A stretch of 64,000 nt of DNA from Alphaproteobacteria bacterium (GTDB lineage: Bacteria; Pseudomonadota; Alphaproteobacteria; UBA828), in the NCBI GenBank assembly GCA_965214705.1, contig OZ243972.1, forward strand, positions 3,072,001 through 3,136,000. The letters run 5' to 3'. The notes below the pieces were generated by a model, which had not been told where the DNA came from, searched no databases, and saw only the letters and a program-made list of their open reading frames with translations. The translations under genes were made by a program, and so were the position numbers. Shown one piece after another: positions 1 to 34,974 of the stretch (positions are counted from its first letter, which is position 1; each line of letters starts with the position of its first letter).

Positions 1-156
1 GAACGCGGTCCCCGGGTCGGGCCGCACCTGCTCCCTGCCGGGACAGCGGAAGGCGCGGTTTTCCGCGATGACTTCGCTCGCGGCGGCGGGGTCGATGCCG
101 ATCTCGGCGAGCAGGTCGCCGGTGGGGACGTCGAAATGGGTATCGGGGTCGAACAT
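1..156 (-). CDS. hypothetical protein, runs off the window edge
   Basis: AGGGAGG RBS then ATG at 156; open frame MFDPDTHFDVPTGDLLAEIGIDP... to position 1. Confidence 0.5.
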   Translation of the reverse strand, partial: MFDPDTHFDVPTGDLLAEIGIDPAAASEVIAENRAFRCPGREQVRPDPGTAF

Positions 157-409
157 GGCCGGAGCCTCCCTTGGCCTGCCCGGCGCCGGCGAGGGAAACC
201 GCTCCCTCCGCTCTCCGGGCGATCGCCCGAAGCGCGCTCTTCTCCAACTCCGCGAAGGGGACGCCACGCGGGACGCATTCGCCCGCCGCATGCGCGGAGC
301 GGCGGTGGTGCCGGAATGGGCGGACCGTGGGCCGCATGGCCTGCCCCCGCCGCCGGCCCGGCGGTTCAGTGCGGGGCGCCGTTGCCGGCGCGACGGGACC
401 GGCCCGGCG

Positions 410-640
410 CTACAGGCGCTCCGCGGCGAAGGCGGTCCAGTTCTCCCGTGTCCAGCCGAGCGGCCGGTTCAGCCTGTCCGCGATCTCCAGGGCCTCGTCG
501 ACGCCCAACACGATCAGCGACGTGCCGATGGCCACATCCATCCCGTCGACGACGATGCGGATCTGCTGGAACCCCGTGTCGGGGTCCTCGACGGGCACGA
601 AGGCGTAGACGGGATTGTCGGGCATCGTGGCGTTGCTCAT
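410..640 (-). CDS. small hypothetical protein (76 aa)
   Basis: GGGAGA RBS, protein-like composition, co-oriented with neighbours. Confidence 0.6.
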   Translation of the reverse strand: MSNATMPDNPVYAFVPVEDPDTGFQQIRIVVDGMDVAIGTSLIVLGVDEALEIADRLNRPLGWTRENWTAFAAERL

Positions 641-906
641 GTGCTCGTTTCTCCCTGTGGGCCGCCGGGACGGGCCGCCCGCCCGCCGGCTATATGTATG
701 GCGGACGCCGGGCCGGCGGTACGGACGGGCGCTGGCGGCGAACCGGCCCCGCCCGATTGAACATCGTTCACGCCCAGGCCGTGAAGCTCGCGGTGACCGG
801 GGCGTCCCGGATCACCTCGACCTGCTCCGAGGACAGCTTGGCGAAGGCGAGGCAGAGAACGACGTCGGCCATGCTGTCATAGGGTGTAGGTCTGGCATGG
901 CGATCG

Positions 907-919
907 TAAGTCATTGATT
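907..919 (-). promoter_or_regulatory. IHF-like binding site inside the IS left end
   Basis: reverse strand AATCAATGACTTA matches the consensus WATCAANNNNTTR. Confidence 0.5.
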
Positions 920-1105
920 TAGCGCGATTGGCGGGTGGCCGTAGGCAGCCAGAATCGGGTTTTCGTGACAATCGGCCGGTGCAGGGCCGGATTTTGTCAC
1001 AACGGCGGCATCCAGCAGTGGTGGGTGGGAACGCTCCGCACCGCGAGATGCGGTAGGATGCCGCGCCGACAACCCAACATCAGACCCAACATCAGGAGCG
1101 TTCCC

Positions 1106-2491
1106 ATGCCAGTGTCGCAGTCTCTCATCGCCTCGTCCATCGACCTTTTGGGCCTGCCTGCCGAAGTCGCCGAAGCGGTCGCCCAGGTGGTGGAGTTCTG
1201 TCGCGAACAGGCTGGGTCTGACCCGTCTGCCGAGACGTTCGAAACGGTTGAGACGGGGCTGCGGGACGCCATGAACGGCTTGGGTTGCAAGCTCCTTGGG
1301 GCCTTCGCCGAGAGCCGCGACGACGGTGCGAGCCGGATCGAGCGCGACGGACAGAGCTGGGTCCGGGTGGCGGCGACGCCGAAGACGATCATGACGACGC
1401 TCGGTCCCGTGACCTATCGGCGTGCGCGCTATCGCAGCGGCGCGAGCAGCACGTCGCTGGTGCCGGTGGACGAGAGCCTGGGCCTCATCGACGACTACCT
1501 GACGCGGCCGGCGGCGCAGCTCGGGCTGATGATGATGGGCCACTGTACGCCGCGTGAAGCGGAGGAGTTCTTCGCGAAAATGGGCGGAATGACGCCGTCG
1601 GTGAGCACGCTGCAGCGCCTGGCCCTGAGCATGCATGAGCACTGGGAGAGCGTCGCCCCGGAGACGCTGGCCAGCATCCGTGAAACCCAGGGCATACCGC
1701 CCGATGCGGTCACCGCGTCCGTCTCCCTTGACGGCGTCATGGTGGCGCTGCGGGCCGGCGAGGACGGCCGTGCCGAGGCGTGCTGGCGCGAGGCCTCTTG
1801 CGGCACGGTCTCCTTCCACGACGCCGAGGGCCAACGGCTGAAGACCCTCTATCTCGGCCGTATGCCCGAGAGCGGCAAGGCCGCGCTGAAAGCGCAACTT
1901 GCAAGCGAGGTCGCCCATATCCGCCGTGTGAGCCCGAAGATCAGGATCGGCGCCGTCGCCGACGGGGCCGCCGACAACTGGACCTTCCTCGAAAGCCTCT
2001 CGCCCGAGACCGAGGTCATCGACTTCTGGCACGCTTGCGAGCATCTCCGCGTGGCCTCTGACCATGCGGTGGCGCGCCACTGGTTCGAGAAGCACCGCGA
2101 AATCCTGCGCCACGACCCCCGCGGCGTCGACAAGGTGATCCGGGCACTGCGCTACCTCCTGGACAGGGCAAAGGGGGACCCGGCCGAGATCGAGCGCGAA
2201 CTGGCCTTCTTCCGAAAGCACCGCCATCGGATGCGCTACCACGCCCTGAAGGAAGAGGGCATCGCCATCGGCTCGGGTGTGGTCGAGGCGGCCTGCAAGA
2301 CCCTCGTCGCGCAGCGCTTGAAACGCTCGGGCATGCGCTGGCGGATCGACGGCGGGCAGGCGGTTCTGACCTTCCGCGCCCTGATCAAATCCGGCCTCTT
2401 CGACCGGGCATGGGATGCGCTCATGGACGCCCGATCCGGACCAGCTAACGACAACATCAGCCCAACCGAAGTCCTGGCACTCGCTGCTTGA
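1106..2491 (+). CDS. ISKra4/UPF0236-family DDE transposase
   Basis: AGGAG RBS before ATG 1106; motifs SLDG, ADGA..W, DFWHACEHL, IGSGVVEAACK..QRLKRSGMRW. Confidence 0.9.
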   Translation: MPVSQSLIASSIDLLGLPAEVAEAVAQVVEFCREQAGSDPSAETFETVETGLRDAMNGLGCKLLGAFAESRDDGASRIERDGQSWVRVAATPKTIMTTLGPVTYRRARYRSGASSTSLVPVDESLGLIDDYLTRPAAQLGLMMMGHCTPREAEEFFAKMGGMTPSVSTLQRLALSMHEHWESVAPETLASIRETQGIPPDAVTASVSLDGVMVALRAGEDGRAEACWREASCGTVSFHDAEGQRLKTLYLGRMPESGKAALKAQLASEVAHIRRVSPKIRIGAVADGAADNWTFLESLSPETEVIDFWHACEHLRVASDHAVARHWFEKHREILRHDPRGVDKVIRALRYLLDRAKGDPAEIERELAFFRKHRHRMRYHALKEEGIAIGSGVVEAACKTLVAQRLKRSGMRWRIDGGQAVLTFRALIKSGLFDRAWDALMDARSGPANDNISPTEVLALAA

Positions 2492-3831
2492 CCAAAATGA
2501 ACCAGCCCATATCCTTTAGCGCCATCACGACTGGCATATCGCCATACGAGAATCACACCCCTGTCATAGGTGCCGTGCTCGATTCCCGTCTCGAGTTCGA
2601 CGACCGTGTATTGCGGCTCATGGACCGGGATGCCGCGAAACGCCCCCGATCCTTCACGGTGCCTGATCGAACAGGGCTCGCAGCGCGCCACCCCGGGCGA
2701 GGGCGCATCGCACTCGACGCAACGGCCCCTGGCGCGCCTGTCGGCATACCGCCGGCGCCGCTCGGCATACTCCGCCTCGCGGTCTCGGCGCTCGTTCTTG
2801 GCGACGGCGCAGGGCGCGCAGTAGGCCGTGCCGTCGAATACCGGGGTCTTGCACTTGACGCAGACCCCGGCGGCGCGGCGGGCGTGGTAGCGCTCGCGCG
2901 CGGCGTCGCAGCAGGCGCGGCACTCGGCCGCCCCGTTGGCGGGCTTTCCGCAGGTGGTGCAATCGCCCCTGGCGCGCCGCTCGGCATAGCGCCGCCGGTC
3001 GGCCTCACGTCTGGCTTCCGGGTTGCGCTTCCGCCGCTTGTTCCGGGCCTCGCCGCAGGGGTCGCAATAGGCCCTCCCGCCGGGCGCGGGCATCGCACAT
3101 TTCACGCACAATCCGGCGGCGCGGCGTTCGGCATGGCGCGCGCGTTTCGCGGCCCGCCGGTTCTCGCGGCACGGCTCGCACATGGACCGGCCCTCCGCGG
3201 GCGGGGCATGTCCGCAGCGGATACAGATGCCGGCCTCCCGGCGGGCTTCGGCGCGCCGGCGGCTGCGCTTCCGGCCGGCCCGCCGCTTGGCTTCCGGATC
3301 GCGGCCGCCATAGGCCAGGCCCCGGGCCTTGGCGCGGGCATGACGGGCGCGGTCGTGCGCGCGATGCTGCTCCGCGCAGGGCTCGCAGGTCGTCCGGTCC
3401 GGGCGTGCCGGAGCCCTGCCGCACTTCGTGCAGATGCCGGCGGCTTTCCTCTCGATGTGCAGCCGGCGGCCGCGCTCGCGCTCGTACTGTTTTGCCTTGG
3501 CAGGATCACGCCTGGGTTTTCCCTCGGCGCGCAGCCTGGCGTTGCGGGCGCGATCGGCGGCGTTGCGCTTCTCGGCGCAGGGCGCGCAGAGCGTGCGCTC
3601 GGGTTCGGGCTCGGTCCGGCCGCAATTCAGGCAGAGGCCGGCCGCCCGGCGGGCTTCGGTCCGCCGGCGGTAGCGTTCCAGGTCGCGAGCGCGCCGAACG
3701 CTGATGTCCTTGTACGCCATGACGGCGCTCTCCCTGCCGATGTGGAATTCGGGACGGAGGACGTCCGGCCGGCTGCCCATGCCCCCGAACCGGGGACGGC
3801 GGGCCGGCTGGACGTCCCAGGGAGGAAGGGG

Positions 3832-4158
3832 TCAGCCCTTCTGGCGGCGGTCGCAGAACAAGGACGTCGATACGCTTCCCCAGTACTGGACCCCGCCGCG
3901 GCTCTTGAGGCCGGTGCAGACGATGATCTCGTTGGGAGCGGGCCGCATCTCCTTGACCGCCTTCAGCGTGGCGGTGAAGACCTTCGCCCTGCGGTTCCTG
4001 CCACCCTTCGGCGCCGGATCGGGGCAGCGCCGAATCTCGCCGTCCGCCATCGCCCGGAACTTCTCGACCGCATAGCGATCGTCGGCCAGGCCGGGTCCGA
4101 AGAAATGGGTGAGAAAGGTCGCCGCCGTGTTGCCGGGCAATGCGATCGCTGCGCTCAT
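3832..4158 (-). CDS. hypothetical protein (108 aa)
   Basis: GGAG RBS; co-oriented upstream of the zinc-repeat gene. Confidence 0.6.
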   Translation of the reverse strand: MSAAIALPGNTAATFLTHFFGPGLADDRYAVEKFRAMADGEIRRCPDPAPKGGRNRRAKVFTATLKAVKEMRPAPNEIIVCTGLKSRGGVQYWGSVSTSLFCDRRQKG

Positions 4159-4368
4159 GATGCCGTCTCCATCGTGCCGTGGTGGAAATCGGCGGCAGCG
4201 CCCCGCCCTCCGAAGCGCCGACCGCCGCCCCGCTCACGGCCAAGCCTCTTCTCCTGCCGGCGAGAGGCGCGCAGGTGGAGACGACGGCAGGATGGCTGCG
4301 TAGCGGGCAGGGGCACGGCGCGAGTTGAAAAGCCACACCGGGTATCATAAAAGGAGCCATGAAGGCGG

Positions 4369-4776
4369 ATGCGCGCGAGGGTCGGGTTGCAGACGTTCAA
4401 GACCAAGGCCTTCGCCCGTTTCGCCGACCGCGAAGGGCTGGAGGATACAGCCTTGTGCGAGGCCGTCCGGCGCGCCGGGGAAGGGCTGATCGACGCCGAC
4501 CTCGGCGGCGGCGTCATCAAGCAGCGCATCGCCCGCAAGGGAGGCGGCCGGTCCGGCGGGTTCCGCACGATCGTGCTGTTCCGCCGGGGCGCGCTGGCGT
4601 TCTTCGTCTACGGTTTCGCCAAGAGCGACCGCGAGAACCTGCGCCGGGACGAGCTCGAGACCTACAGGCTGTTGGCCGACGGGTATCTGGCGCTGGACAG
4701 GAAGGGCCTGGCGGCCGCGCAGGCGACTGGATCGATAATCGAGGTGGAATGCGATGACCAAGCAATACAAGAGTGA
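4369..4776 (+). CDS. higB: type II TA toxin, RelE/ParE (HigB-2-like) family
   Basis: FKTKAFARFA...DADLGGGVIKQRIARKGGGRSGGFRTI...FFVYGFAKSDRENL; start could be TTG 4387. Confidence 0.88.
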   Translation: MRARVGLQTFKTKAFARFADREGLEDTALCEAVRRAGEGLIDADLGGGVIKQRIARKGGGRSGGFRTIVLFRRGALAFFVYGFAKSDRENLRRDELETYRLLADGYLALDRKGLAAAQATGSIIEVECDDQAIQE

Positions 4777-5071
4777 GGCGCTCGCGGCTGCGCACGAGGC
4801 GGCGCTCGGCCTGGCCGAGGCGGGCCTGATGTCGAAACGGACCATGCGGAAGTTCGACGAGATGTGCCTCACGCCCGTCAAGGAGATGACGCCGGAGGAC
4901 ATTCGCGAGCTTCGGCTGCGCGAGCATGCGAGCCAGGCGGTGTTCGCGCGCTACCTCAACGTGACGACGGGTCTGGTGAGCCAGTGGGAGCGCGGCGAGA
5001 AGCGCCCCCGGGGCACCTCGCTCAAGCTGCTGACACTGGTCGCCAAGAACGGTCTTGGGGCGGTCGCGTGA
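4754..5071 (+). CDS. higA: XRE-HTH antitoxin (HigA-2-like)
   Basis: IRELRLREHASQAVFARYLNVTTGLVSQWERGEKRP HTH; overlaps the toxin 3' end; toxin-first order. Confidence 0.88.
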   Translation: MTKQYKSEALAAAHEAALGLAEAGLMSKRTMRKFDEMCLTPVKEMTPEDIRELRLREHASQAVFARYLNVTTGLVSQWERGEKRPRGTSLKLLTLVAKNGLGAVA

Positions 5072-5182
5072 CGGGCAGATACGCTCTGGCGCGCTGCAAT
5101 ACTATTGAATCCGCTTTCGGTTTGATCTCGGATCAGGTCAGGAAAGAGAATAATTGTTGTATTTAGGTGAGTTAGATGGATA

Positions 5183-5575
5183 GCGGTTCTTACCGACAGC
5201 AAGACGGGGCCGCGAAAGGTTCCTCTCAACAGCCAGGCCCGACGCGTCCTGGAGCGACAGCCGCGTGTGGGAAGCCCATTCGTGTTCCCGTCGCCGCGCG
5301 ATCCGTCGCGACCGCGCGGCGTTGACCTTCCGCTGTGGTATTCGGCGCGCCGGGAGGCCGGCATCGAGGATGTCCGGCTTCACGACCTCAGACACACCCA
5401 CGCCAGCCACGCGGTGATGAACGGAGTGCCGGTGCCGGTGGTCTCGCGGCTCCTCGGCCATTCCAACGTCCGCATGACGCTCCGCTACGCCCATCTCGGG
5501 GACCGCGACATCGAGGCCGCCGCCGAGAGGGTCGGACAGGCCGTTGCCGACATCATGGGTATCGGAAGCGACTGA
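5183..5575 (+). pseudogene. tyrosine recombinase/integrase C-terminal remnant
   Basis: LTDSKTGPR...HDLRHTHAS...LLGHSNVRMTLRYAHL; N-terminal part including the first catalytic Arg is missing. Confidence 0.85.
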
Positions 5576-5944
5576 TCCGTTTGCGGTGAACCTCGTTTGC
5601 CTACACTCGCCACAATCCGGTTCGGTCATGGCGCAGACGTACCTTACCAATCCCCATTTCATTACCTTTGGAGATCACTTGGGCGTCCTCCGGCGTCTCC
5701 TTCAGCCAGCGCGCCGGAACCGAAATCCGACCGATCACTGTCCCGTCGAACGGCGACGTTAGTTCGACCGCAATGTCCACTGTCCTGTCGCTCGAGGCGG
5801 GTGACAATCCTCTCGTTGACCTTGGCCTGAGTGGCTTTACCGGTGAGTGTTGGTGGAGCTTCCCCCGGAGGAACCTCCTGCTGAGAGAGTGGTCCTTCTA
5901 CAGGATCCCAGATTGAATTAGTCTTTCCTCCACGGGAGGCTGAC

Positions 5945-7159
5945 ATGGCTAACGGATCTCCGACGGAGGTCTCCGCCGAGGCCCTGGTTGAGGCGGCCCG
6001 CGACTTGGTACCGAAGCTCGCCGCCGGTGCAGCGGACCGCGACAGGAACCGCACATTGCCGCTCGACGAGGTCGATCTCGTGCGCCGGTCGCGTGTCCTG
6101 ACCGCACGGGTTCCCGAGCGTTTCGGTGGTCCGGGCGCCAGCTTCGAGTCATTCGCCGAGATCACAATGTCGCTCTCCGAAGGCGACTGCAACGTCGCCC
6201 AATCGGTCGGCCCGAGCTGCGTCATGCTGGAGCTGTTCCGGCTGGAATCGACCGAGGCCCAAATGCGCAGGTACTACGGGAAGGTTCTGGACGGCGTCAT
6301 CTATACCAACGCGATGGCGGAGCGTGGAGGCAAGTTCGTCGGCGACCTCAAGACGACGATCGCCCCGGACGGCGACGTCTATCGCATCAACGGCACTAAG
6401 TTCTACTGCACCGGAAGCCAGGTGTGCGACGAAATCATCGCGAACGGTCTGATGCCGGACGGCTCCCTCGGCTATGTCCTGTTGCCGGTCGGCAGTGCGG
6501 GCGTGACCATCGAAGACGACTGGGACGGCATGGGGCAACGCACCACCTCAAGCGGCACGATCCGGTTCGACAATGTGGCGGTGGTGCCGGACGACGTGGT
6601 CCCCGCGCCCGATGCGCACACCCGGCGCGCCTATGTCGGGGCCGGCTTTCAACTCTTTCAGGCGGCGATCGACGCGGGAATTACACGCGCCGCCCTGACC
6701 GATGCGATCGATTACGCCCGAACCAAGGCCCGCCCGGTACCGGAAGCGGGCGTGACGCGCCAGGCCGATGACCCGTATGTCATTTCGGCGATCGGCGAAA
6801 TGGCGACCTTTTCGCACGGTGCAGACTCGATGGTGCGGCGCGCTGCGAGGGTTGTCGACCAGGCGTCGGAAGCGCAGATCACGGGAAGCCTCGCCGGGGA
6901 CGCGCTCGACAGGCAGCTGAGCGAGGGCTCCATCGCGGTCTGCGAAGCCAAGATCGCGGCAACCCATGCCGCGCTCAGGGTCAGCGAAATGCTGTTTCAA
7001 GTCGCCGGCGCTTCCGCTTCGCTCCGGCGCTACGACCTGGACCGTCATTGGCGCAACGCGCGCACTCACACGCTGCACGATCCCGTGTCCTACAAGTACC
7101 GGGCGGTCGGCGACTTCCTTCTGAACGGCCGGCCGCCGCCGATTTCCACCAAGTACTGA
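5945..7159 (+). CDS. acyl-CoA dehydrogenase-like flavin monooxygenase (SfnB/DszC type)
   Basis: NGTKFYCTGS, DDWDGMGQRTTSSGT, DRHWRNARTHTLHDPV; GGGAGG RBS. Confidence 0.88.
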   Translation: MANGSPTEVSAEALVEAARDLVPKLAAGAADRDRNRTLPLDEVDLVRRSRVLTARVPERFGGPGASFESFAEITMSLSEGDCNVAQSVGPSCVMLELFRLESTEAQMRRYYGKVLDGVIYTNAMAERGGKFVGDLKTTIAPDGDVYRINGTKFYCTGSQVCDEIIANGLMPDGSLGYVLLPVGSAGVTIEDDWDGMGQRTTSSGTIRFDNVAVVPDDVVPAPDAHTRRAYVGAGFQLFQAAIDAGITRAALTDAIDYARTKARPVPEAGVTRQADDPYVISAIGEMATFSHGADSMVRRAARVVDQASEAQITGSLAGDALDRQLSEGSIAVCEAKIAATHAALRVSEMLFQVAGASASLRRYDLDRHWRNARTHTLHDPVSYKYRAVGDFLLNGRPPPISTKY

Positions 7160-7225
7160 GTTGCGGCCCAGCGCGGCTTTCGGGGACGCAGCCTTCTTCC
7201 TATCGAACCGTCGGGAGGCAACGGC

Positions 7226-7999
7226 ATGGCGACATTCGACGACTACGCCGAACGGTACCGGCACATCAAGATGGAGCGGCGAAACGGCATTTTGCAGATC
7301 ACCCTTCATAGCGGTGGCGACAGCCTTCGCTGGAGTCTCGGCCCGCATGAGGAGATCGGGCACGCGTTTGCGGATATCGGCGGGGATCCCGACAACGAGG
7401 TCGTGATCATGACCGGGACCGGCGCCGAGTTCTCCGGCCCGAGGGCGTCGGCAGCGACCCGCTCTCCCGCGCACGGCGTCACGGCGCGGGAATGGGGCAG
7501 TATCTACCGGGACGGCAAACAGTTGCTGATGAACCTGCTCAATATCGAAATGCCGATGATCAGCGCCATCAACGGCCCCGCGTGGCGCCACTCGGAGCTC
7601 CCACTGCTCTGCGACATCGTGCTCGCCGCCGAGGATGCCGCATTCCAGGACTCGGCGCACTTCCAGGGTGGTCTCGTCCCGGGAGACGGCGTCCACGTCA
7701 TCTACCCATTGATCATGGGCCTCAACCGGGGCCGCTACTTCCTGCTCACTGGCCAGACGCTCGACGCCCACGAAGCGAAGAACGTGGGCCTCGTCAACGA
7801 AGTGCTGCCACGGGGCGAGGTGCTGCCCCGCGCCTGGGAACTGGCGGAGCAAATGATGCAACAGTCCTCTCTCGTGCGGCGCTACACCCGGGTCATGCTC
7901 ACCCAGTACGTCAAGAGGGCGATGCACGATCTCCTGGGGTACGGGCTCGCGCTGGAGGGGCTCGCCGTCCTGGAGGCGGCGGAGGACGGCGAATCATAG
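7226..7999 (+). CDS. camK: crotonase-family beta-diketone hydrolase (6-oxocamphor hydrolase-like)
   Basis: FQDSAHFQGGLVPGDGVHV...NRGRYFLLTGQTLDA closely resembles CamK; catalytic His/Asp retained. Confidence 0.82.
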   Translation: MATFDDYAERYRHIKMERRNGILQITLHSGGDSLRWSLGPHEEIGHAFADIGGDPDNEVVIMTGTGAEFSGPRASAATRSPAHGVTAREWGSIYRDGKQLLMNLLNIEMPMISAINGPAWRHSELPLLCDIVLAAEDAAFQDSAHFQGGLVPGDGVHVIYPLIMGLNRGRYFLLTGQTLDAHEAKNVGLVNEVLPRGEVLPRAWELAEQMMQQSSLVRRYTRVMLTQYVKRAMHDLLGYGLALEGLAVLEAAEDGES

Positions 8000-8074
8000 A
8001 TATCAGGAACTGGCAAGTGCGGACGAGCCTCGGAGCAGGTCGGTCACGCGACCCTTGTGATCAGGATATCGGCC

Positions 8075-9322
8075 TCAGAAGCGGTCGGCTCGAAACGGCG
8101 TCATGTCGGCGACCGTGGAGCGGCCCGCCGCCATGTCCGCGATGGCCCGGCCGGTGGCCGCTGCCAGCGTCAGGCCGATATGGCCGTGGCCGAAGGCCAG
8201 AAGGACACCGGGCTCGCCCTCGATACCTGAAATGACCGGCTTCGAATCGGGAAAGGAGGGCCGCGGACCCATCCAGCGCTCGACCTGTGCGGTTCCAAGC
8301 CCCGGATAGAATCGGGAGGCATGTTTGAGCAAGACCTCGGCGCGCGCATCGTTCGGCGGCGCGTCGAGGCCGGCGAGCTCGACCGTGCCGGCGACACGCA
8401 GGCCATCGGCCATCGGCGTGCAGTAGAAGCCGCGCGCCTCGGACCCGACGGGTATCCGGAGATCGAGACCCGGATCCCGCAGCATGACGTGATAGCCCCG
8501 CTCCGTATCGAGGGGCAGCCTTGCGCCGAGCGGTCGGACAAGCGCGCGCGACCATGCTCCGGCGGCGACGACCACGAGTTCGGCGTCGACGGGGTCCTCT
8601 CCGGTCACGACCTGGCGCAGTCCCGGTTCCTTCGTAACGATGCCGCGCGCCTCGGCTCTGACCATGCTGCCGCCCTTGCGGAAGAAATCTGCGGCAAGGG
8701 CCCGTGTAAGGCGCACGGGGCTCGCCACGCTGTTGACGTCGGGCCGATAGGTGCCTCCCTTGAAGATCGCTGCAAGCGCGGGCTCGATCTGGCGAATCTC
8801 GTCCGCGCTGACTTCTTCGGTCTTACCGCCGTGGCGTTGTCGCAATGCGCGGTCGCCGCGAGCGAATTCTAACTCTGCTTCCGTCTCATGGACGAGGAGC
8901 GCGCCCCGCCGATAGATCAGGTCTTCTGCGCCGGCGTTCTTGATGAGCGGCGCGTAGGCCTCCTCGGACTGGCTGGTCAGGGTCGCCACCTCTGCGGTGA
9001 TCGTCTCTACACGCTCAGCCGTCCCCGCCCGGATGAAGCGCCAGAGCCAGGGCGCGGCACGCGGCACATAAGTCCAGCGCACCGCGAAAGGCCCCAGCGA
9101 GTCCAGCAGCATGGCCGGTACACGCCGGAGCAGGCCCGGCCTAGCGATTGGGGGCACTGCGCTCGTCGCGATCAGGCCCGCGTTGCCGAACGAGCACGCC
9201 TCCCCCGGCTCTCGCGGGTCGATCAGCGTGACCCGCCAGCCGTCACGCTGAAGATAGAGCGCACAGCAGGTGCCGACGATACCGGCACCGATCACTGCCG
9301 CCCTTTTCCCATCCGCCGTCAT
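8075..9322 (-). CDS. FAD-dependent D-amino acid dehydrogenase (DadA-like)
   Basis: GAGIVG Rossmann motif, CSFGNAG, ERGYH, WMGPRPSFPDSKPVI, FGHGHIGLT. Confidence 0.88.
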   Translation of the reverse strand: MTADGKRAAVIGAGIVGTCCALYLQRDGWRVTLIDPREPGEACSFGNAGLIATSAVPPIARPGLLRRVPAMLLDSLGPFAVRWTYVPRAAPWLWRFIRAGTAERVETITAEVATLTSQSEEAYAPLIKNAGAEDLIYRRGALLVHETEAELEFARGDRALRQRHGGKTEEVSADEIRQIEPALAAIFKGGTYRPDVNSVASPVRLTRALAADFFRKGGSMVRAEARGIVTKEPGLRQVVTGEDPVDAELVVVAAGAWSRALVRPLGARLPLDTERGYHVMLRDPGLDLRIPVGSEARGFYCTPMADGLRVAGTVELAGLDAPPNDARAEVLLKHASRFYPGLGTAQVERWMGPRPSFPDSKPVISGIEGEPGVLLAFGHGHIGLTLAAATGRAIADMAAGRSTVADMTPFRADRF

Positions 9323-9386
9323 CGTTCAGGGATCCGGGACGGAGCCTCCGGCTCGTGAGCGCCGCTGACCACAGAGATGCGAGTCT

Positions 9387-9408
9387 CCGGCATACGGTTT
9401 GCAAACCG
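9387..9408 (+). promoter_or_regulatory. candidate sigma-54 promoter overlapping a 14-bp palindromic operator
   Basis: CCGGCATACGGTTTGCA (GG-N10-GC); perfect palindrome CGGTTTGCAAACCG at 9395-9408 in a divergent intergenic region. Confidence 0.35.
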
Positions 9409-9647
9409 GGGCCATCGGTGCGAAGTGCGGCGGACGCAGTTTCCATGCTACAGTATCGGCTGGCCGGGGGAGCGCAAGATGCCGATTCTGACCGGCGTGA
9501 GACGCGGCGCCCGCCATGGCTCGGCCGCGCACCAAAGTGCAGCGAGGGAGCCGGCCTCGTGAACACCGCGCGCCAAAGCGCGAACGATATCTATCAGATC
9601 AACGGTTGTGCGCCGCTCGTGCTGGCGAGCGGCGGGAGGGTTCAGGG

Positions 9648-11327
9648 ATGAACGTATCGTCGCGGGCGAATGCGTCTGACCCGATCACGCTCGAGGTCGT
9701 TCGGCACAAGCTCGACGGCATCGCGAACGAGATGGAGGTGACGCTCCTGAAGAGCTCGTTTTCTCCGATTGTGAAGGAGGGCCAGGACGCATCTGCGACA
9801 CTGTTCACGGTGGAGGGGGAGACCCTGGCGCAGGCGATTGCGATCCCGATTCACATGGCGACCCTGATCCCGATCGTTCGGACGATCCTGCGCACCCATC
9901 CGCTGTCAGACGTGCGCGCGGGCGACATCTACATCATGAACGACCCCTATCTGGGGGGCACGCATCTGCCGGACATCGCGTTGGTGATGCCGGTATTTCA
10001 CGAAGGGACGGCGGTGGCGCTGAGCGCGTGTCTCACGCATCACCAGGACGTTGGCGGCATGACGCCGGGATCGATCCCGACGAACGCAACGGAGATTTTC
10101 CAGGAGGGCGTCCGAATTCCGCCGCTGAAGCTGTGGGACGCGGGCCGGGTGAACGAGACGCTGGTGGGACTGTTGAAGCGCAATGTTCGTGCGCCGGAAA
10201 TATTCATGGGCGATCTGAACGCGCAGATTGCAGCATGCACGGTTGGCGCGCGGCGAGTACGTGAGCTTGCGTCGCGTTATGGCCACAACCGCCTGGTTGG
10301 GATATTCGCAGAGCTGCTGGATCGGTCGGAGGCGATGACGCGGGCGGCGTTGAGCCGGATCCCGCCAGGTACGTATCGCAATGTGGACCATCTGGACAAT
10401 GACGGGATCGAACTCGACCGTCGGGTTCGGGTTGAGGTTGCGGTGACTGTCGGTGACGGCGCGGTGTCGTGCGACTTCACGGGGACGTCGGACCAGGTGA
10501 AGGGACCGATGAATTGCGTGCCGTCCGGCTCCTATGCGGCGGCGTACTTTGCGGTTCGCGCCGTGACGGACCCGAGCATTCCGACCAACGGCGGCTGCTT
10601 CCGGCCGGTCGAGCTGACGCTCCCGGAAGGTAGTCTCGTCAATCCCATCGAACCCGCACCGGTCAATGCGAGGACTCCCACGATCAAGCTGATCACGAAC
10701 ACCATCCTGGGCGCTCTGAGGGACGCATTGCCAGATAGGATTCCGGCGGACAGCGCCGGCGAGACGATCACGCAGGTCTTCGGAATGAAACGCGCCGACG
10801 GCGCCTCATTCGTCGCGGGCGAGATGCTGGCGGGCGGCAGCGGCGCGAGCAACGGCGACGATGGCATCGACGTGATCGATACCGACGCGACCAACTGCAT
10901 GAACCTGCCGGTCGAGTCCTTGGAGACGGACCTGCCGATACGTCTCAGGCGCTTCGAGCTGGTCTGCGATTCGGGCGGGGCCGGGCGCCGGCGAGGTGGC
11001 CTCGGCAGCATCCGGGAATACGAAATTCTGGACGGGGAGATCACCTTCAGCCACCGGGGCGAGCGCTACTTCCAGGCCTGCGCCGGCTCATCGGGCGGCG
11101 AGGCCGGAGCGTCGGCAAGCGGCAGCGTCTATCGAGCGGACGGGGGTGAGGAGACGGTCCCATCCAAGCTCGCGGGCGTGCTCCGCAAGGGTGACCGTCT
11201 GGTGCTCAAGACGCCGGGCGGGGGCGGCTTCGGCGATCCCAAGGAACGCGACCGTGCCCTCGTCGAGGACGACGTTCGGAACGGCAAGGTCAGCGACAAG
11301 GCTGCGCGGGAGGTCTACGGCCTGTAG
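9648..11327 (+). CDS. hyuB: hydantoinase B/oxoprolinase family subunit
   Basis: DPITLEV, SPIVKE, NDPYLGGTHLPD, HHQDVGG, TPGGGGFGDP. Confidence 0.92.
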   Translation: MNVSSRANASDPITLEVVRHKLDGIANEMEVTLLKSSFSPIVKEGQDASATLFTVEGETLAQAIAIPIHMATLIPIVRTILRTHPLSDVRAGDIYIMNDPYLGGTHLPDIALVMPVFHEGTAVALSACLTHHQDVGGMTPGSIPTNATEIFQEGVRIPPLKLWDAGRVNETLVGLLKRNVRAPEIFMGDLNAQIAACTVGARRVRELASRYGHNRLVGIFAELLDRSEAMTRAALSRIPPGTYRNVDHLDNDGIELDRRVRVEVAVTVGDGAVSCDFTGTSDQVKGPMNCVPSGSYAAAYFAVRAVTDPSIPTNGGCFRPVELTLPEGSLVNPIEPAPVNARTPTIKLITNTILGALRDALPDRIPADSAGETITQVFGMKRADGASFVAGEMLAGGSGASNGDDGIDVIDTDATNCMNLPVESLETDLPIRLRRFELVCDSGGAGRRRGGLGSIREYEILDGEITFSHRGERYFQACAGSSGGEAGASASGSVYRADGGEETVPSKLAGVLRKGDRLVLKTPGGGGFGDPKERDRALVEDDVRNGKVSDKAAREVYGL

Positions 11328-11399
11328 ACCACGAGTGGATAACCAAGAGAACACCGACAAAGAATTACTCAGGGAAATGAAGATAGGGAGGCCTAACCA

Positions 11400-12599
11400 A
11401 TGCGCAAGATAACGATGCTGGGCGCAATCGCTGCGCTCGTAGCCGGTGGCTTGGTTCAGACCGCGGCCGCCGAGGAGGAATCCATAACGGTGGGCTTCGC
11501 GATCGCACAATCCGGCTGGATGCAACCGTACGACATTGGGCCGGCGCGCATGGCAGAGCTTGCCATCGAGGAGATCAATCAACGCGGCGGCTTGCTCGGG
11601 CGACAGCTTGTGACCAGCTATGCCGACACCAAGACCGACGTGGCGCAGAGCGCGAAGGCCGGCGGAGAGCTCATCGATGAAGGCGCCGACTTCCTGGTCC
11701 TGAGCTGCGACTACGACTACGGCTCGCCGGCCGCGCTTGCCGCCGAGGATGCCGGCGTCGTGTCAATGTCAACCTGCGCGGGCGACCCCCTCATGGGCAT
11801 TCAGGGCGTTGGACCGCACACCTTTACCGCGGCGCTCGCGGCACAGGTCCAGGGCGCCGTCGCCGCGGAATGGGGCTATCAGACGAAGGGCTATCGCAAC
11901 GCCTACGTTCTTCTCGATACCTTCATCGAGTTCAACAAGTCGGTCTGCGCGGGGTTTGACTGGGCCTGGGAGCGTTTACCTGACGCCAAGGTCGCGGGCA
12001 ACGATACTTTCCATTTCAATGATCCGTCGATTGCTTCGCAGATCACGCGCATCAAGAACAGCGCCGAGCAGCCGGACGTCATCATGATCTGCTCGTTCCC
12101 ACCCGGTGGCGCGACGGCGATCCGCCAGATGCGGGCGGCCGGTATCGACGTGCCGATCCTCGCGGGGCAGGGCTTCGAGGGTAACTTCTGGCTCGAATCC
12201 GTGCCGAATCTTGGTGAGTTCTATCTGATGGGCGTCGGGTCGGTCTACGGCAATGACCCGCGCGAAAAGGTTCGCGAAGTGGTCGACAACTACAAGAAGA
12301 AGTACGACGAGCCGCCGGTCTCGGCCCATAGCCTGACCGGCTATCTGGTCATCGAGATGTGGGCGAACGCGGTGGAGAAGGCGGGAACGACGGAAGGCGG
12401 AGCGGTGGTCGCTGCGCTCGAGTCCTTTCGAGACGAGTCGACTTTCGTTGGCCCGAGGACGTTCACCGACGAACTCCATATCGCAAATCAGGGCACATTC
12501 CTCATGCTCGAGGTCGTCGACGGACAGCACAACGCGCTCGACCTCTTCACCAACCAGGATCCGGTGCCCGAGAACGTGCTCTTCCGGGTCAAGGAGTAA
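11400..12599 (+). CDS. branched-chain amino acid-type ABC substrate-binding protein
   Basis: signal peptide; LAIEEINQRGGLLGRQL; LivJ/K-like. Confidence 0.88.
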   Translation: MRKITMLGAIAALVAGGLVQTAAAEEESITVGFAIAQSGWMQPYDIGPARMAELAIEEINQRGGLLGRQLVTSYADTKTDVAQSAKAGGELIDEGADFLVLSCDYDYGSPAALAAEDAGVVSMSTCAGDPLMGIQGVGPHTFTAALAAQVQGAVAAEWGYQTKGYRNAYVLLDTFIEFNKSVCAGFDWAWERLPDAKVAGNDTFHFNDPSIASQITRIKNSAEQPDVIMICSFPPGGATAIRQMRAAGIDVPILAGQGFEGNFWLESVPNLGEFYLMGVGSVYGNDPREKVREVVDNYKKKYDEPPVSAHSLTGYLVIEMWANAVEKAGTTEGGAVVAALESFRDESTFVGPRTFTDELHIANQGTFLMLEVVDGQHNALDLFTNQDPVPENVLFRVKE

Positions 12600-33282: not shown

Positions 33283-34961
33283 GGGTGTAGGTCTGGCATG
33301 GCGATCGTAAGTCATTGATTTAGCGCGATTGGCGGGTGGCCGTAGGCAGCCAGAATCGGGTTTTCGTGACAATCGGCCGGTGCAGGGCCGGATTTTGTCA
33401 CAACGGCGGCATCCAGCAGTGGTGGGTGGGAACGCTCCGCACCGCGAGATGCGGTAGGATGCCGCGCCGACAACCCAACATCAGACCCAACATCAGGAGC
33501 GTTCCCATGCCAGTGTCGCAGTCTCTCATCGCCTCGTCCATCGACCTTTTGGGCCTGCCTGCCGAAGTCGCCGAAGCGGTCGCCCAGGTGGTGGAGTTCT
33601 GTCGCGAACAGGCTGGGTCTGACCCGTCTGCCGAGACGTTCGAAACGGTTGAGACGGGGCTGCGGGACGCCATGAACGGCTTGGGTTGCAAGCTCCTTGG
33701 GGCCTTCGCCGAGAGCCGCGACGACGGTGCGAGCCGGATCGAGCGCGACGGACAGAGCTGGGTCCGGGTGGCGGCGACGCCGAAGACGATCATGACGACG
33801 CTCGGTCCCGTGACCTATCGGCGTGCGCGCTATCGCAGCGGCGCGAGCAGCACGTCGCTGGTGCCGGTGGACGAGAGCCTGGGCCTCATCGACGACTACC
33901 TGACGCGGCCGGCGGCGCAGCTCGGGCTGATGATGATGGGCCACTGTACGCCGCGTGAAGCGGAGGAGTTCTTCGCGAAAATGGGCGGAATGACGCCGTC
34001 GGTGAGCACGCTGCAGCGCCTGGCCCTGAGCATGCATGAGCACTGGGAGAGCGTCGCCCCGGAGACGCTGGCCAGCATCCGTGAAACCCAGGGCATACCG
34101 CCCGATGCGGTCACCGCGTCCGTCTCCCTTGACGGCGTCATGGTGGCGCTGCGGGCCGGCGAGGACGGCCGTGCCGAGGCGTGCTGGCGCGAGGCCTCTT
34201 GCGGCACGGTCTCCTTCCACGACGCCGAGGGCCAACGGCTGAAGACCCTCTATCTCGGCCGTATGCCCGAGAGCGGCAAGGCCGCGCTGAAAGCGCAACT
34301 TGCAAGCGAGGTCGCCCATATCCGCCGTGTGAGCCCGAAGATCAGGATCGGCGCCGTCGCCGACGGGGCCGCCGACAACTGGACCTTCCTCGAAAGCCTC
34401 TCGCCCGAGACCGAGGTCATCGACTTCTGGCACGCTTGCGAGCATCTCCGCGTGGCCTCTGACCATGCGGTGGCGCGCCACTGGTTCGAGAAGCACCGCG
34501 AAATCCTGCGCCACGACCCCCGCGGCGTCGACAAGGTGATCCGGGCACTGCGCTACCTCCTGGACAGGGCAAAGGGGGACCCGGCCGAGATCGAGCGCGA
34601 GCTGGCCTTCTTCCGAAAGCACCGCCATCGGATGCGCTACCACGCCCTGAAGGAAGAGGGCATCGCCATCGGCTCGGGTGTGGTCGAGGCGGCCTGCAAG
34701 ACCCTCGTCGCGCAGCGCTTGAAACGCTCGGGCATGCGCTGGCGGATCGACGGCGGGCAGGCGGTTCTGACCTTCCGCGCCCTGATCAAATCCGGCCTCT
34801 TCGACCGGGCATGGGATGCGCTCATGGACGCCCGATCCGGACCAGCTAACGACAACATCAGCCCAACCGAAGTCCTGGCACTCGCTACTTGACCAAAATG
34901 AACCAGCCCATATCCTTTAGCGCCATCACGACTGGCATATCGCCATACGAGAATCACACCC
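33283..34961 (+). mobile_element. ISKra4-type IS, copy 2
   Basis: near-identical to 882-2560; 8-bp TSD CCTTTTCG at 33275-33282 and 34962-34969. Confidence 0.95.
33507..34892 (+). CDS. ISKra4/UPF0236-family transposase
   Basis: same protein as copy 1 except the last residue (A to T). Confidence 0.9.
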   Translation: MPVSQSLIASSIDLLGLPAEVAEAVAQVVEFCREQAGSDPSAETFETVETGLRDAMNGLGCKLLGAFAESRDDGASRIERDGQSWVRVAATPKTIMTTLGPVTYRRARYRSGASSTSLVPVDESLGLIDDYLTRPAAQLGLMMMGHCTPREAEEFFAKMGGMTPSVSTLQRLALSMHEHWESVAPETLASIRETQGIPPDAVTASVSLDGVMVALRAGEDGRAEACWREASCGTVSFHDAEGQRLKTLYLGRMPESGKAALKAQLASEVAHIRRVSPKIRIGAVADGAADNWTFLESLSPETEVIDFWHACEHLRVASDHAVARHWFEKHREILRHDPRGVDKVIRALRYLLDRAKGDPAEIERELAFFRKHRHRMRYHALKEEGIAIGSGVVEAACKTLVAQRLKRSGMRWRIDGGQAVLTFRALIKSGLFDRAWDALMDARSGPANDNISPTEVLALAT

Positions 34962-34974
34962 CCTTTTCGTGTGC

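Follow-up and report, generated by a model that had tools for sequence, protein, structure and literature searches.

The 64-kb stretch of alphaproteobacterial DNA analysed here (the window; C1:3072001-3136000 of the 7.9-Mb genome G000, which comprises three contigs) carries a gene for a protein with seven consecutive Cys4 modules, which we call the array gene and which has been split by an insertion sequence (IS). The gene belongs to a conserved and abundant family of zinc-ribbon proteins on conjugative elements that is undescribed and unnamed; proteins of this general kind are already known. As judged from its sequence relatives, the array is probably a nucleic-acid-binding module. We give about an even chance to the more specific proposal of a nucleic-acid binder with little sequence specificity that acts on the transferred strand of the conjugative element. 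Positions are window coordinates unless they carry a contig (C1) or locus (L) prefix.

An interrupted array gene and its intact sister

The array gene lies on the minus strand in two pieces, 3720..2563 and 875..771, which together encode one protein of 421 aa. The 5′ part (2561..3720) starts with an ATG at 3720 and comprises 386 codons to 2563 plus two bases of the next codon. It carries all seven Cys4 modules and the beginning of the end domain; its last array codon is 2565..2563, and past 2563 the reading frame continues into IS sequence. The 3′ part (768..881, minus strand) supplies 35 further codons (875..771) that encode the remainder of the acidic end domain, followed by the stop codon at 770..768, and agrees with the C-termini of 11 homologues from other genomes. 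An alternative in-frame ATG is present upstream, at 3780, and the start was set at 3720 because homologues begin with MAY[KR]D, which matches that position.

The interrupting element is 1679 bp long (882..2560, plus strand) and ends in 23-nt imperfect inverted repeats. It is flanked by an 8-bp target-site duplication, CTGTCATA, with one copy beside the 5′ gene part (2561..2568) and the other beside the 3′ part (874..881). Its transposase gene (935..2491) encodes 518 aa and matches Pfam UPF0236/PF06782 (32.1 bits; cutoff 24.3). UPF0236 transposases, which are of the DDE type, are those of the ISLre2 family, and the inverted ends and duplicated target also fit this assignment. The limits of the IS were fixed by comparison with the 23 other full-length copies in the genome. 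All 24 copies are at least 99.88% identical and most have clean 8-bp target duplications, and the IS therefore looks currently active. Two of the further copies lie in the window, at 33283-34962 and from 63168 to the window end (C1:3105283-3106962 and C1:3135168-3136849).

Removal of the IS and one copy of the duplication leaves an open frame of 421 codons, as deduced from the two pieces, in agreement with the roughly 420-aa reading frame that the initial annotation had expected to recover by excising the IS. The peptide across the junction reads YTVVELETGIEHGTYD followed by SMADVVLCLAFAKL when the pieces are joined, exactly as quoted in the initial annotation, and it reads identically in an intact sister gene 1.15 Mb away in the same genome (L019:1501-2763, protein P0270). 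The sister is approximately 95% identical to the window gene, with 366 of the first 386 residues shared, and is uninterrupted across the junction, which indicates that the IS insertion is recent and is the sole visible lesion. The window copy is thus a recently inactivated, dead gene with an intact relative in the same genome.

Architecture of the array protein

The sister protein contains seven CxxC-x(9-11)-CxxC motifs, at residues 30, 97, 166, 205, 254, 287 and 334, with neighbouring units starting 33-69 residues apart. The earlier count of seven units was correct, and the spacer of 9-12 residues given with it is 9-11 in the array protein. Among 2000 composition-preserving shuffles, 1856 contained no such motif, 139 contained one and five contained two. 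The first 360 residues include 83 Arg and have a pI of 10.6 and a net charge of +55, whereas the pI of the last 61 residues is 4.4, as anticipated in the description of a very basic array followed by an acidic C-terminal domain. The acidic end domain itself measures 55 aa.

An AlphaFold2 model built with a 48-sequence alignment (pLDDT 84.8, pTM 0.34) presents each unit as helix-knuckle-helix, followed by a β-β-α-β domain at residues 370-410. In this model the modules appear locally confident and flexibly strung together. Conservation across 39 orthologues reaches 99% at the 28 Cys columns, which together with the Cys4 pattern and the model points to zinc binding. Conservation is otherwise even, with a mean majority frequency of about 0.8 in helices, knuckle loops and end domain alike, and the 39 orthologues display no hypervariable positions of the kind that could serve to read a sequence. 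The end domain has the signature [FY][RK]G[IVL]P...TV[VI]E[LI]xTG...[FY]D[ST]...C[LI]xF...VE[VI], which is common to 129 distinct family tails and which the two window pieces give when taken together. The intact product appears to be non-enzymatic.

HNH-fused relatives of the array

By sequence, the closest relatives of the array family are proteins in which the same repeat array is fused to an HNH nuclease; the closest named models are Pfam DZR and DZR_2, the thresholds of which are not reached. Two of these distant relatives are uncharacterised metagenomic proteins. P0265 matches Pfam HNH models, and P0263 ends in ...EIDHINGGGNEHR...LCPTCNKKAH, a tail with matches in 35 phage records to genes annotated as HNH endonucleases, such as gp110 of Streptomyces phage Keanu. 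In BLASTP with composition adjustment, P0270 and P0263 are 32% identical over 282 aa (E 8e-24) with their modules in register. The searches are reciprocal, since P0263 as query recovers members of the array family and vice versa. The HNH tail was found by pattern search in 68 distinct proteins among 381 collected.

Both groups share a unit consisting of a basic helix, G-x-C-x-x-C-G, a loop of 9-11 residues, C-x-x-C and a second basic helix, present in two to eight copies in the HNH-fused proteins. The latter end in the nuclease domain, whereas the array family ends in the unrelated small acidic domain and lacks a recognisable catalytic motif; the array protein contains neither an HNH catalytic domain (DH...N...CxxC[NH]) nor a match to an HNH Pfam model. 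Because the same array forms the non-catalytic arm of an HNH nuclease, it is most simply viewed as a DNA-binding module. The fusions are the best, if indirect, evidence for the nucleic-acid binding proposed in the initial annotation. The case is made somewhat stronger by the combination of these fusions with a gene block, described below, that includes SSB, cold-shock domain (CSD), HU and Toprim primase genes. The end domain was also considered as an HNH finger without its ligands on account of a likeness seen by eye, and this candidate was rejected when hhalign comparison of the 129 end domains with the 68 HNH tails gave a probability of 0.6%.

Size and spread of the family

The initial annotation called the protein uncharacterised, and this description stood: no Pfam (E≤0.1), NCBIfam or PDB sequence match was obtained, and the few named relatives are all called 'hypothetical protein'. 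A word-indexed search returned 1029 proteins at E≤1e-3 among 8000 scored, and an exhaustive HMMER search of 1.84 billion representatives returned 2508 at E≤1e-3, 370 at E≤1e-10 and 74 at E≤1e-30, many of the weaker matches being fragments or frameshifted predictions. In the protein atlas, the family forms its own 'hypothetical protein' cluster, and the next clusters, of DZR_2 proteins, score 0.85-0.87 and serve as leads only. Longer fused forms of the array protein were not found, which is weak evidence. Full-text literature searches yielded no description of the family, a result on which the uncharacterised leading-region families tabulated in PMC11541004 (Extended Data Table 1), and its supplements, could still bear.

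The protein is modular, as had been proposed, with four to eight units across the family. Of 269 collected proteins with the end-domain anchor, 54 have seven motifs, 27 have eight and 15 have six, fewer motifs being rarer; the commonest type in this genome has four modules. Pairwise dN/dS values are 0.26-0.37 (six pairs among four orthologues). Eighteen loci were located in GTDB species genomes, assigned to Alphaproteobacteria (12), Paracoccaceae (two), Rhodospirillaceae (one), Thalassobaculaceae (one), a Gemmatimonadetes bin (one) and, as a weak 29% match, Dehalococcoidia (one). In an even sample across the class, five of 300 other genomes had a match at E≤1e-10, each with several, and no match was seen in either of the two genomes that share the taxonomic family of this bacterium. 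This genome alone contains 33 array loci, some of which are halves of split genes. With 1029 hits and 33 loci in this genome, the family is not rare; the initial annotation had called poly-zinc-finger arrays rare in bacteria.

Profile searches of the PDB yielded ribosomal protein eL37 (E 0.023) and the HNH endonuclease 4h9d (E 0.13) as the only matches with one profile (A1) and nothing below E 0.27 with a second (A2). The eL37 match would suit an RNA-binding or ribosome-associated factor acting on mRNA or rRNA in the manner of Arg-rich zinc-ribbon ribosomal proteins, and CSD proteins, which bind RNA as well as single-stranded DNA (ssDNA), lie beside the block in nine of 26 loci. We find this explanation scarcely credible: the eL37 match is below significance and spans a single module, the neighbourhood consists mainly of DNA-transfer genes, and the HNH fusions indicate DNA.

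A conserved gene block

Directly upstream of the array gene lies a gene for a 108-aa protein of no known family (up108; 3832..4158, minus strand). A homologue of up108 accompanies the array gene in 15 of the 18 foreign loci, and in 24 of the 33 loci of this genome it is on the same strand, starting 110-438 bp upstream. The search for conserved neighbours that had been recommended thus yielded up108 and a block that includes SSB. The protein is predicted to be all-β (AlphaFold2 pLDDT 70). Fold searches gave no match (best Z 3.6, best Foldseek E 0.36), and the protein atlas and NCBIfam contained nothing for it; up108 is an orphan family of its own. Complex prediction of the array protein with up108 scored 0.00 in two runs, which decides neither way. 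Eleven positions of up108 are invariant over 25 sequences (T14, H18, G21, G23, L24, E32, R72, P73, E77, T82 and Q91).

Downstream of the seven-module type the order is dn76, a 129-aa gene, SSB, a small protein, a YAcAr-domain protein and a ribbon-helix-helix (RHH) gene. In the window, dn76 (76 aa; 410..640, minus strand) directly follows the array gene; it is present in nine of the 18 foreign loci, is conserved with the seven-module type and has no family match in Pfam, PHROGs and NCBIfam scans. The next block gene (129 aa; 1..291, minus strand) runs off the window start, and NCBIfam gave no match for the small proteins of the block. SSB (L032:19319-19801), the 338-aa YAcAr-domain protein (L032:17543-18559) and the RHH gene (L032:16408-16911) lie just outside the window. 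In the four-module type the order is HU, a divergently transcribed triple-CSD protein, up108, array, SSB, a DUF7146-Toprim protein, a 112-aa protein, a YAcAr protein and a NikA-like protein (E 6.4e-07). The triple-CSD protein is encoded divergently from up108 at L034:16040-17383 (plus strand) and at eight more loci, with an HU-like gene beside it; a multi-CSD architecture is unusual on a mobile element. Among the 26 clustered loci of this genome, array genes were present in 21, up108 in 19, SSB in 17, Toprim in 13, YAcAr in 12, the small protein in 11 and the CSD protein in nine, and SSB lies downstream of the array in 20 of all 33 loci. Nearly all identifiable neighbours in the block bind or process nucleic acid, mostly single strands.

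These neighbourhoods bear on two explanations that differ from action on a transferred strand. In the first, the array protein is a sequence-specific regulator whose modules each read a few bases, together recognising a long composite operator through which transfer or excision genes are repressed or activated; this takes the poly-zinc-finger likeness of the initial annotation literally. The modules of one protein are dissimilar, but a given module is conserved at each position across orthologues, the seven-module gene is close to an integrase and the end of the element, and module number varies between element subfamilies, all of which would suit such a regulator. Several observations argue otherwise, namely the absence of hypervariable positions under a uniform majority frequency of about 0.8, the neighbours at four-module loci, which are SSB, primase, CSD and HU in place of regulators or an integrase, a charge of +55 over 360 residues that suggests backbone binding, and the use of the same array by HNH nucleases. 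We consider a regulator improbable.

The second explanation is that the array acts as an accessory to a primase, holding or selecting the ssDNA template for the Toprim primase in trans, together with SSB. In primases of the DnaG and T7 types it is a zinc ribbon that recognises the template, a role that would be mirrored here. DUF7146-Toprim follows SSB in 13 of the 26 clustered loci, and the genome has 26 Toprim loci against 33 array loci. The seven-module block of the window and the sister, on the other hand, is without a Toprim gene, and the Toprim match of the sister ICE (integrative conjugative element) lies elsewhere, at C1:1985488. The N-terminal part of the Toprim protein may also have a zinc domain of its own, according to a weak NCBIfam match, and a fusion of array and primase was not found, which is weak evidence. 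The chance that the array serves a primase in this way is slim.

A possible role on the transferred strand

The element in the window is an inverted twin of one at C1:1.92-1.98 Mb, with 95-99% identity in DNA, on which the intact sister gene lies. The twin encodes a 390-aa tyrosine integrase at the position of an integrase remnant in the window, the same RelE/HTH (helix-turn-helix) pair and the same block, as well as a TrwC relaxase, a TrwB coupling protein and the F-type type IV secretion system (T4SS) components TraL/E/B/V/C/W/N. The F-type T4SS, TrwB and TrwC identify the element as an ICE, of the TrwC/MOBF relaxase type, and not a phage, so that of the phage- or ICE-like nature first proposed for it only the latter part holds. 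TrwC relaxase domains occur at approximately 33 places in the whole genome, which also has 26 DUF7146-Toprim loci but only four VirB4/TraC loci and five type IV coupling protein loci. The scarcity of VirB4/TraC loci relative to TrwC places indicates that most array copies reside on mobilisable or decayed elements rather than full conjugative ones. By implication, a few conjugative islands serve dozens of others that are mobilisable or decayed.

On its conjugative element the block lies beside ssb and further genes of establishment, a feature of leading regions, and it is oriented towards the RHH or NikA-like gene both in four-module loci and in the window ICE. If the origin of transfer (oriT) were near that gene, the block would enter the recipient first and be oriented for transcription from the incoming strand. 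We propose that the array, as a flexible string of Arg-lined helix/Cys4 knuckle/helix modules, would bind nucleic acid multivalently as the transferred strand arrives in or leaves the cell. It could then coat, protect or chaperone the strand in a manner analogous to that of retroviral nucleocapsid zinc knuckles, working with up108, the SSB of the element and, where present, the primase. The acidic end domain may contact a protein partner or fold back to mask the basic array.

Leading regions also invite an alternative in which the array is an anti-defence or anti-SOS factor that blocks a recipient nuclease, restriction enzyme, CRISPR effector or RecA, comparable to ArdA, ArdC, PsiB or Acr proteins. 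According to the text of PMC11541004, anti-defence genes are enriched beside ssb in the leading regions of conjugative elements, and the block holds both ssb and YAcAr. The family is patchy and multi-copy, as are accessory genes of mobile elements, and its kinship with HNH arrays could permit competition for the substrate of a nuclease. No PHROGs anti-defence family was matched, however, the one weak hit being to a DksA-like zinc finger (E 0.0077), and zinc is mentioned zero times in the text of PMC11541004. Known DNA-mimic inhibitors, moreover, are acidic, whereas the array protein is strongly basic. We assign an anti-defence function a small probability.

Several observations weigh against the proposal that the array acts on the transferred strand. 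An oriT upstream of the F-like tra operon, if that is where it lies, would mean later entry of the block, in an orientation unsuited to being transcribed from the incoming strand. In the window ICE the NikA-like match of the RHH gene is sub-threshold (E 0.07), and in large ICEs the block and the distant TrwC gene are transcribed towards each other. The DNA upstream of up108 has no unusual single-strand fold (z = -0.11). The seven-module block of the window does not contain the Toprim gene found in most four-module blocks. None of the 72,556 PLSDB plasmids has a family match, so the array is no general feature of conjugation. The position-by-position conservation of each module would also fit a sequence-specific role. 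Structural comparison offered no help either: there is no solved homologue of the array protein, and the full AlphaFold2 model had no fold match in the PDB with Foldseek (best E 1.8) or in a wide VIA-align search (best Z 3.9, over 41 residues).

Work on the establishment of conjugative DNA has concentrated on plasmids of cultured bacteria, where the known actors are SSB, PsiB, ArdA/ArdC and primases. The array family is a member of an equivalent gene block in uncultured marine-type Alphaproteobacteria and is without a solved relative in its architecture. Should binding of the transferred strand prove true, the proteins known to act in establishment would be joined by a new class, which would also provide a compact natural nucleic-acid-binding scaffold of tunable length. 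A bolder version, which we think rather unlikely, is that array and up108 constitute a new type of establishment factor, a nucleocapsid-like, zinc-stapled coat for ssDNA with four to eight modules depending on lineage, derived from or giving rise to the HNH arm, and that the elements carrying it would be able to multiply to dozens of copies per genome, as with the 33 array loci here.

Comparison with known systems

Pfam DZR (PF12773) and DZR_2 (PF18912) resemble the array in having consecutive Cys4 ribbons, and relatives of the array protein match them at a sub-threshold or marginal level (16-36 bits; cutoff 27). Neither the window protein nor its sister has a Pfam match at E≤0.1, and the DZR models are without the long Arg-rich helices and the end domain. 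TraR/DksA proteins likewise join a helix to a Cys4 finger and are encoded by conjugative elements as well as phages, and the single weak PHROGs match, over residues 5-60 of P0003, was to phrog_54, 'DksA-like zinc-finger protein' (E 0.0077). TraR/DksA proteins have one finger with a CxxC-x17-CxxC spacer and a coiled coil that enters RNA polymerase, whereas members of the array family have four to eight fingers with spacers of 9-11 residues and no match to Pfam zf-dskA_traR.

The C-terminal ribbons of topoisomerase I, which bind ssDNA, share with the array the tandem Cys4 ribbons, a DNA-handling setting and ssDNA as the proposed ligand. The array protein nevertheless matches neither zf-C4_Topoisom nor any topoisomerase chain, and the only structural matches to topoisomerases (Z 3.3-3.8) are to the end domain and not to the ribbons. 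The initial annotation had likened the protein to poly-zinc-finger arrays, a comparison that survives as analogy only. C2H2 arrays have Cys2His2 fingers of about 28 residues with a β-β-α fold and a conserved linker, whereas the array has four Cys per helix-knuckle-helix module, with its ribbons set between long Arg-rich helices, lacks hypervariable positions and has no match to Pfam zf-C2H2. Retroviral nucleocapsid proteins are nucleic-acid chaperones with small CCHC zinc knuckles in very basic sequence. Their resemblance to the array would be one of function, without homology, as the array is Cys4 rather than CCHC and its modules are far larger and helical.

Other features of the elements and the genome

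Beyond up108, the window contains a RelE-type toxin gene (4369-4776) and an HTH antitoxin gene (4754-5071) on the plus strand (Pfam RelE 1.5e-43 and HTH_3 1e-06), followed by the C-terminal 102 aa of a tyrosine integrase (5267..5575, plus strand; Pfam Phage_integrase 3.7e-14). Both features had been noted from the DNA, and the Pfam matches agree with them. The integrase remnant marks the end of the element, and ordinary metabolic genes, including acyl-CoA dehydrogenase and enoyl-CoA hydratase, begin at 5945. No tRNA gene was found at the end of the element (positions 1-12000).

The mobile-element load of the genome is extreme, with 137 tblastn high-scoring segment pairs genome-wide for one tyrosine integrase query. 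The genome contains 68 full-length copies of a 2.67-kb element that encodes a tyrosine recombinase and an IS91-type Y2 transposase (Pfam Y2_Tnp and Zn_Tnp_IS91); their identity ranges from 97.7 to 100% and is at least 99.5% in 63. Two copies lie in the same ICE just outside the window (C1:3060271-3062945 and 3063420-3066088), and another, at C1:14073-16738, splits a different array gene. The array family was considered as a preferred target of this IS91-like element and rejected as such, only one of the 68 full-length copies being inside an array gene.

The twin ICE also carries cargo (C1:1933001-1946287, L029/L030), consisting of a type ISP restriction-modification enzyme and a CRISPR-Cas locus with a Cas3-like protein, a GSU0054-family protein, a Cas4-Cas1 fusion and Cas2. 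This cargo sits between the establishment block and the relaxase gene, and the window ICE carries different cargo at the CRISPR-Cas/ISP position.

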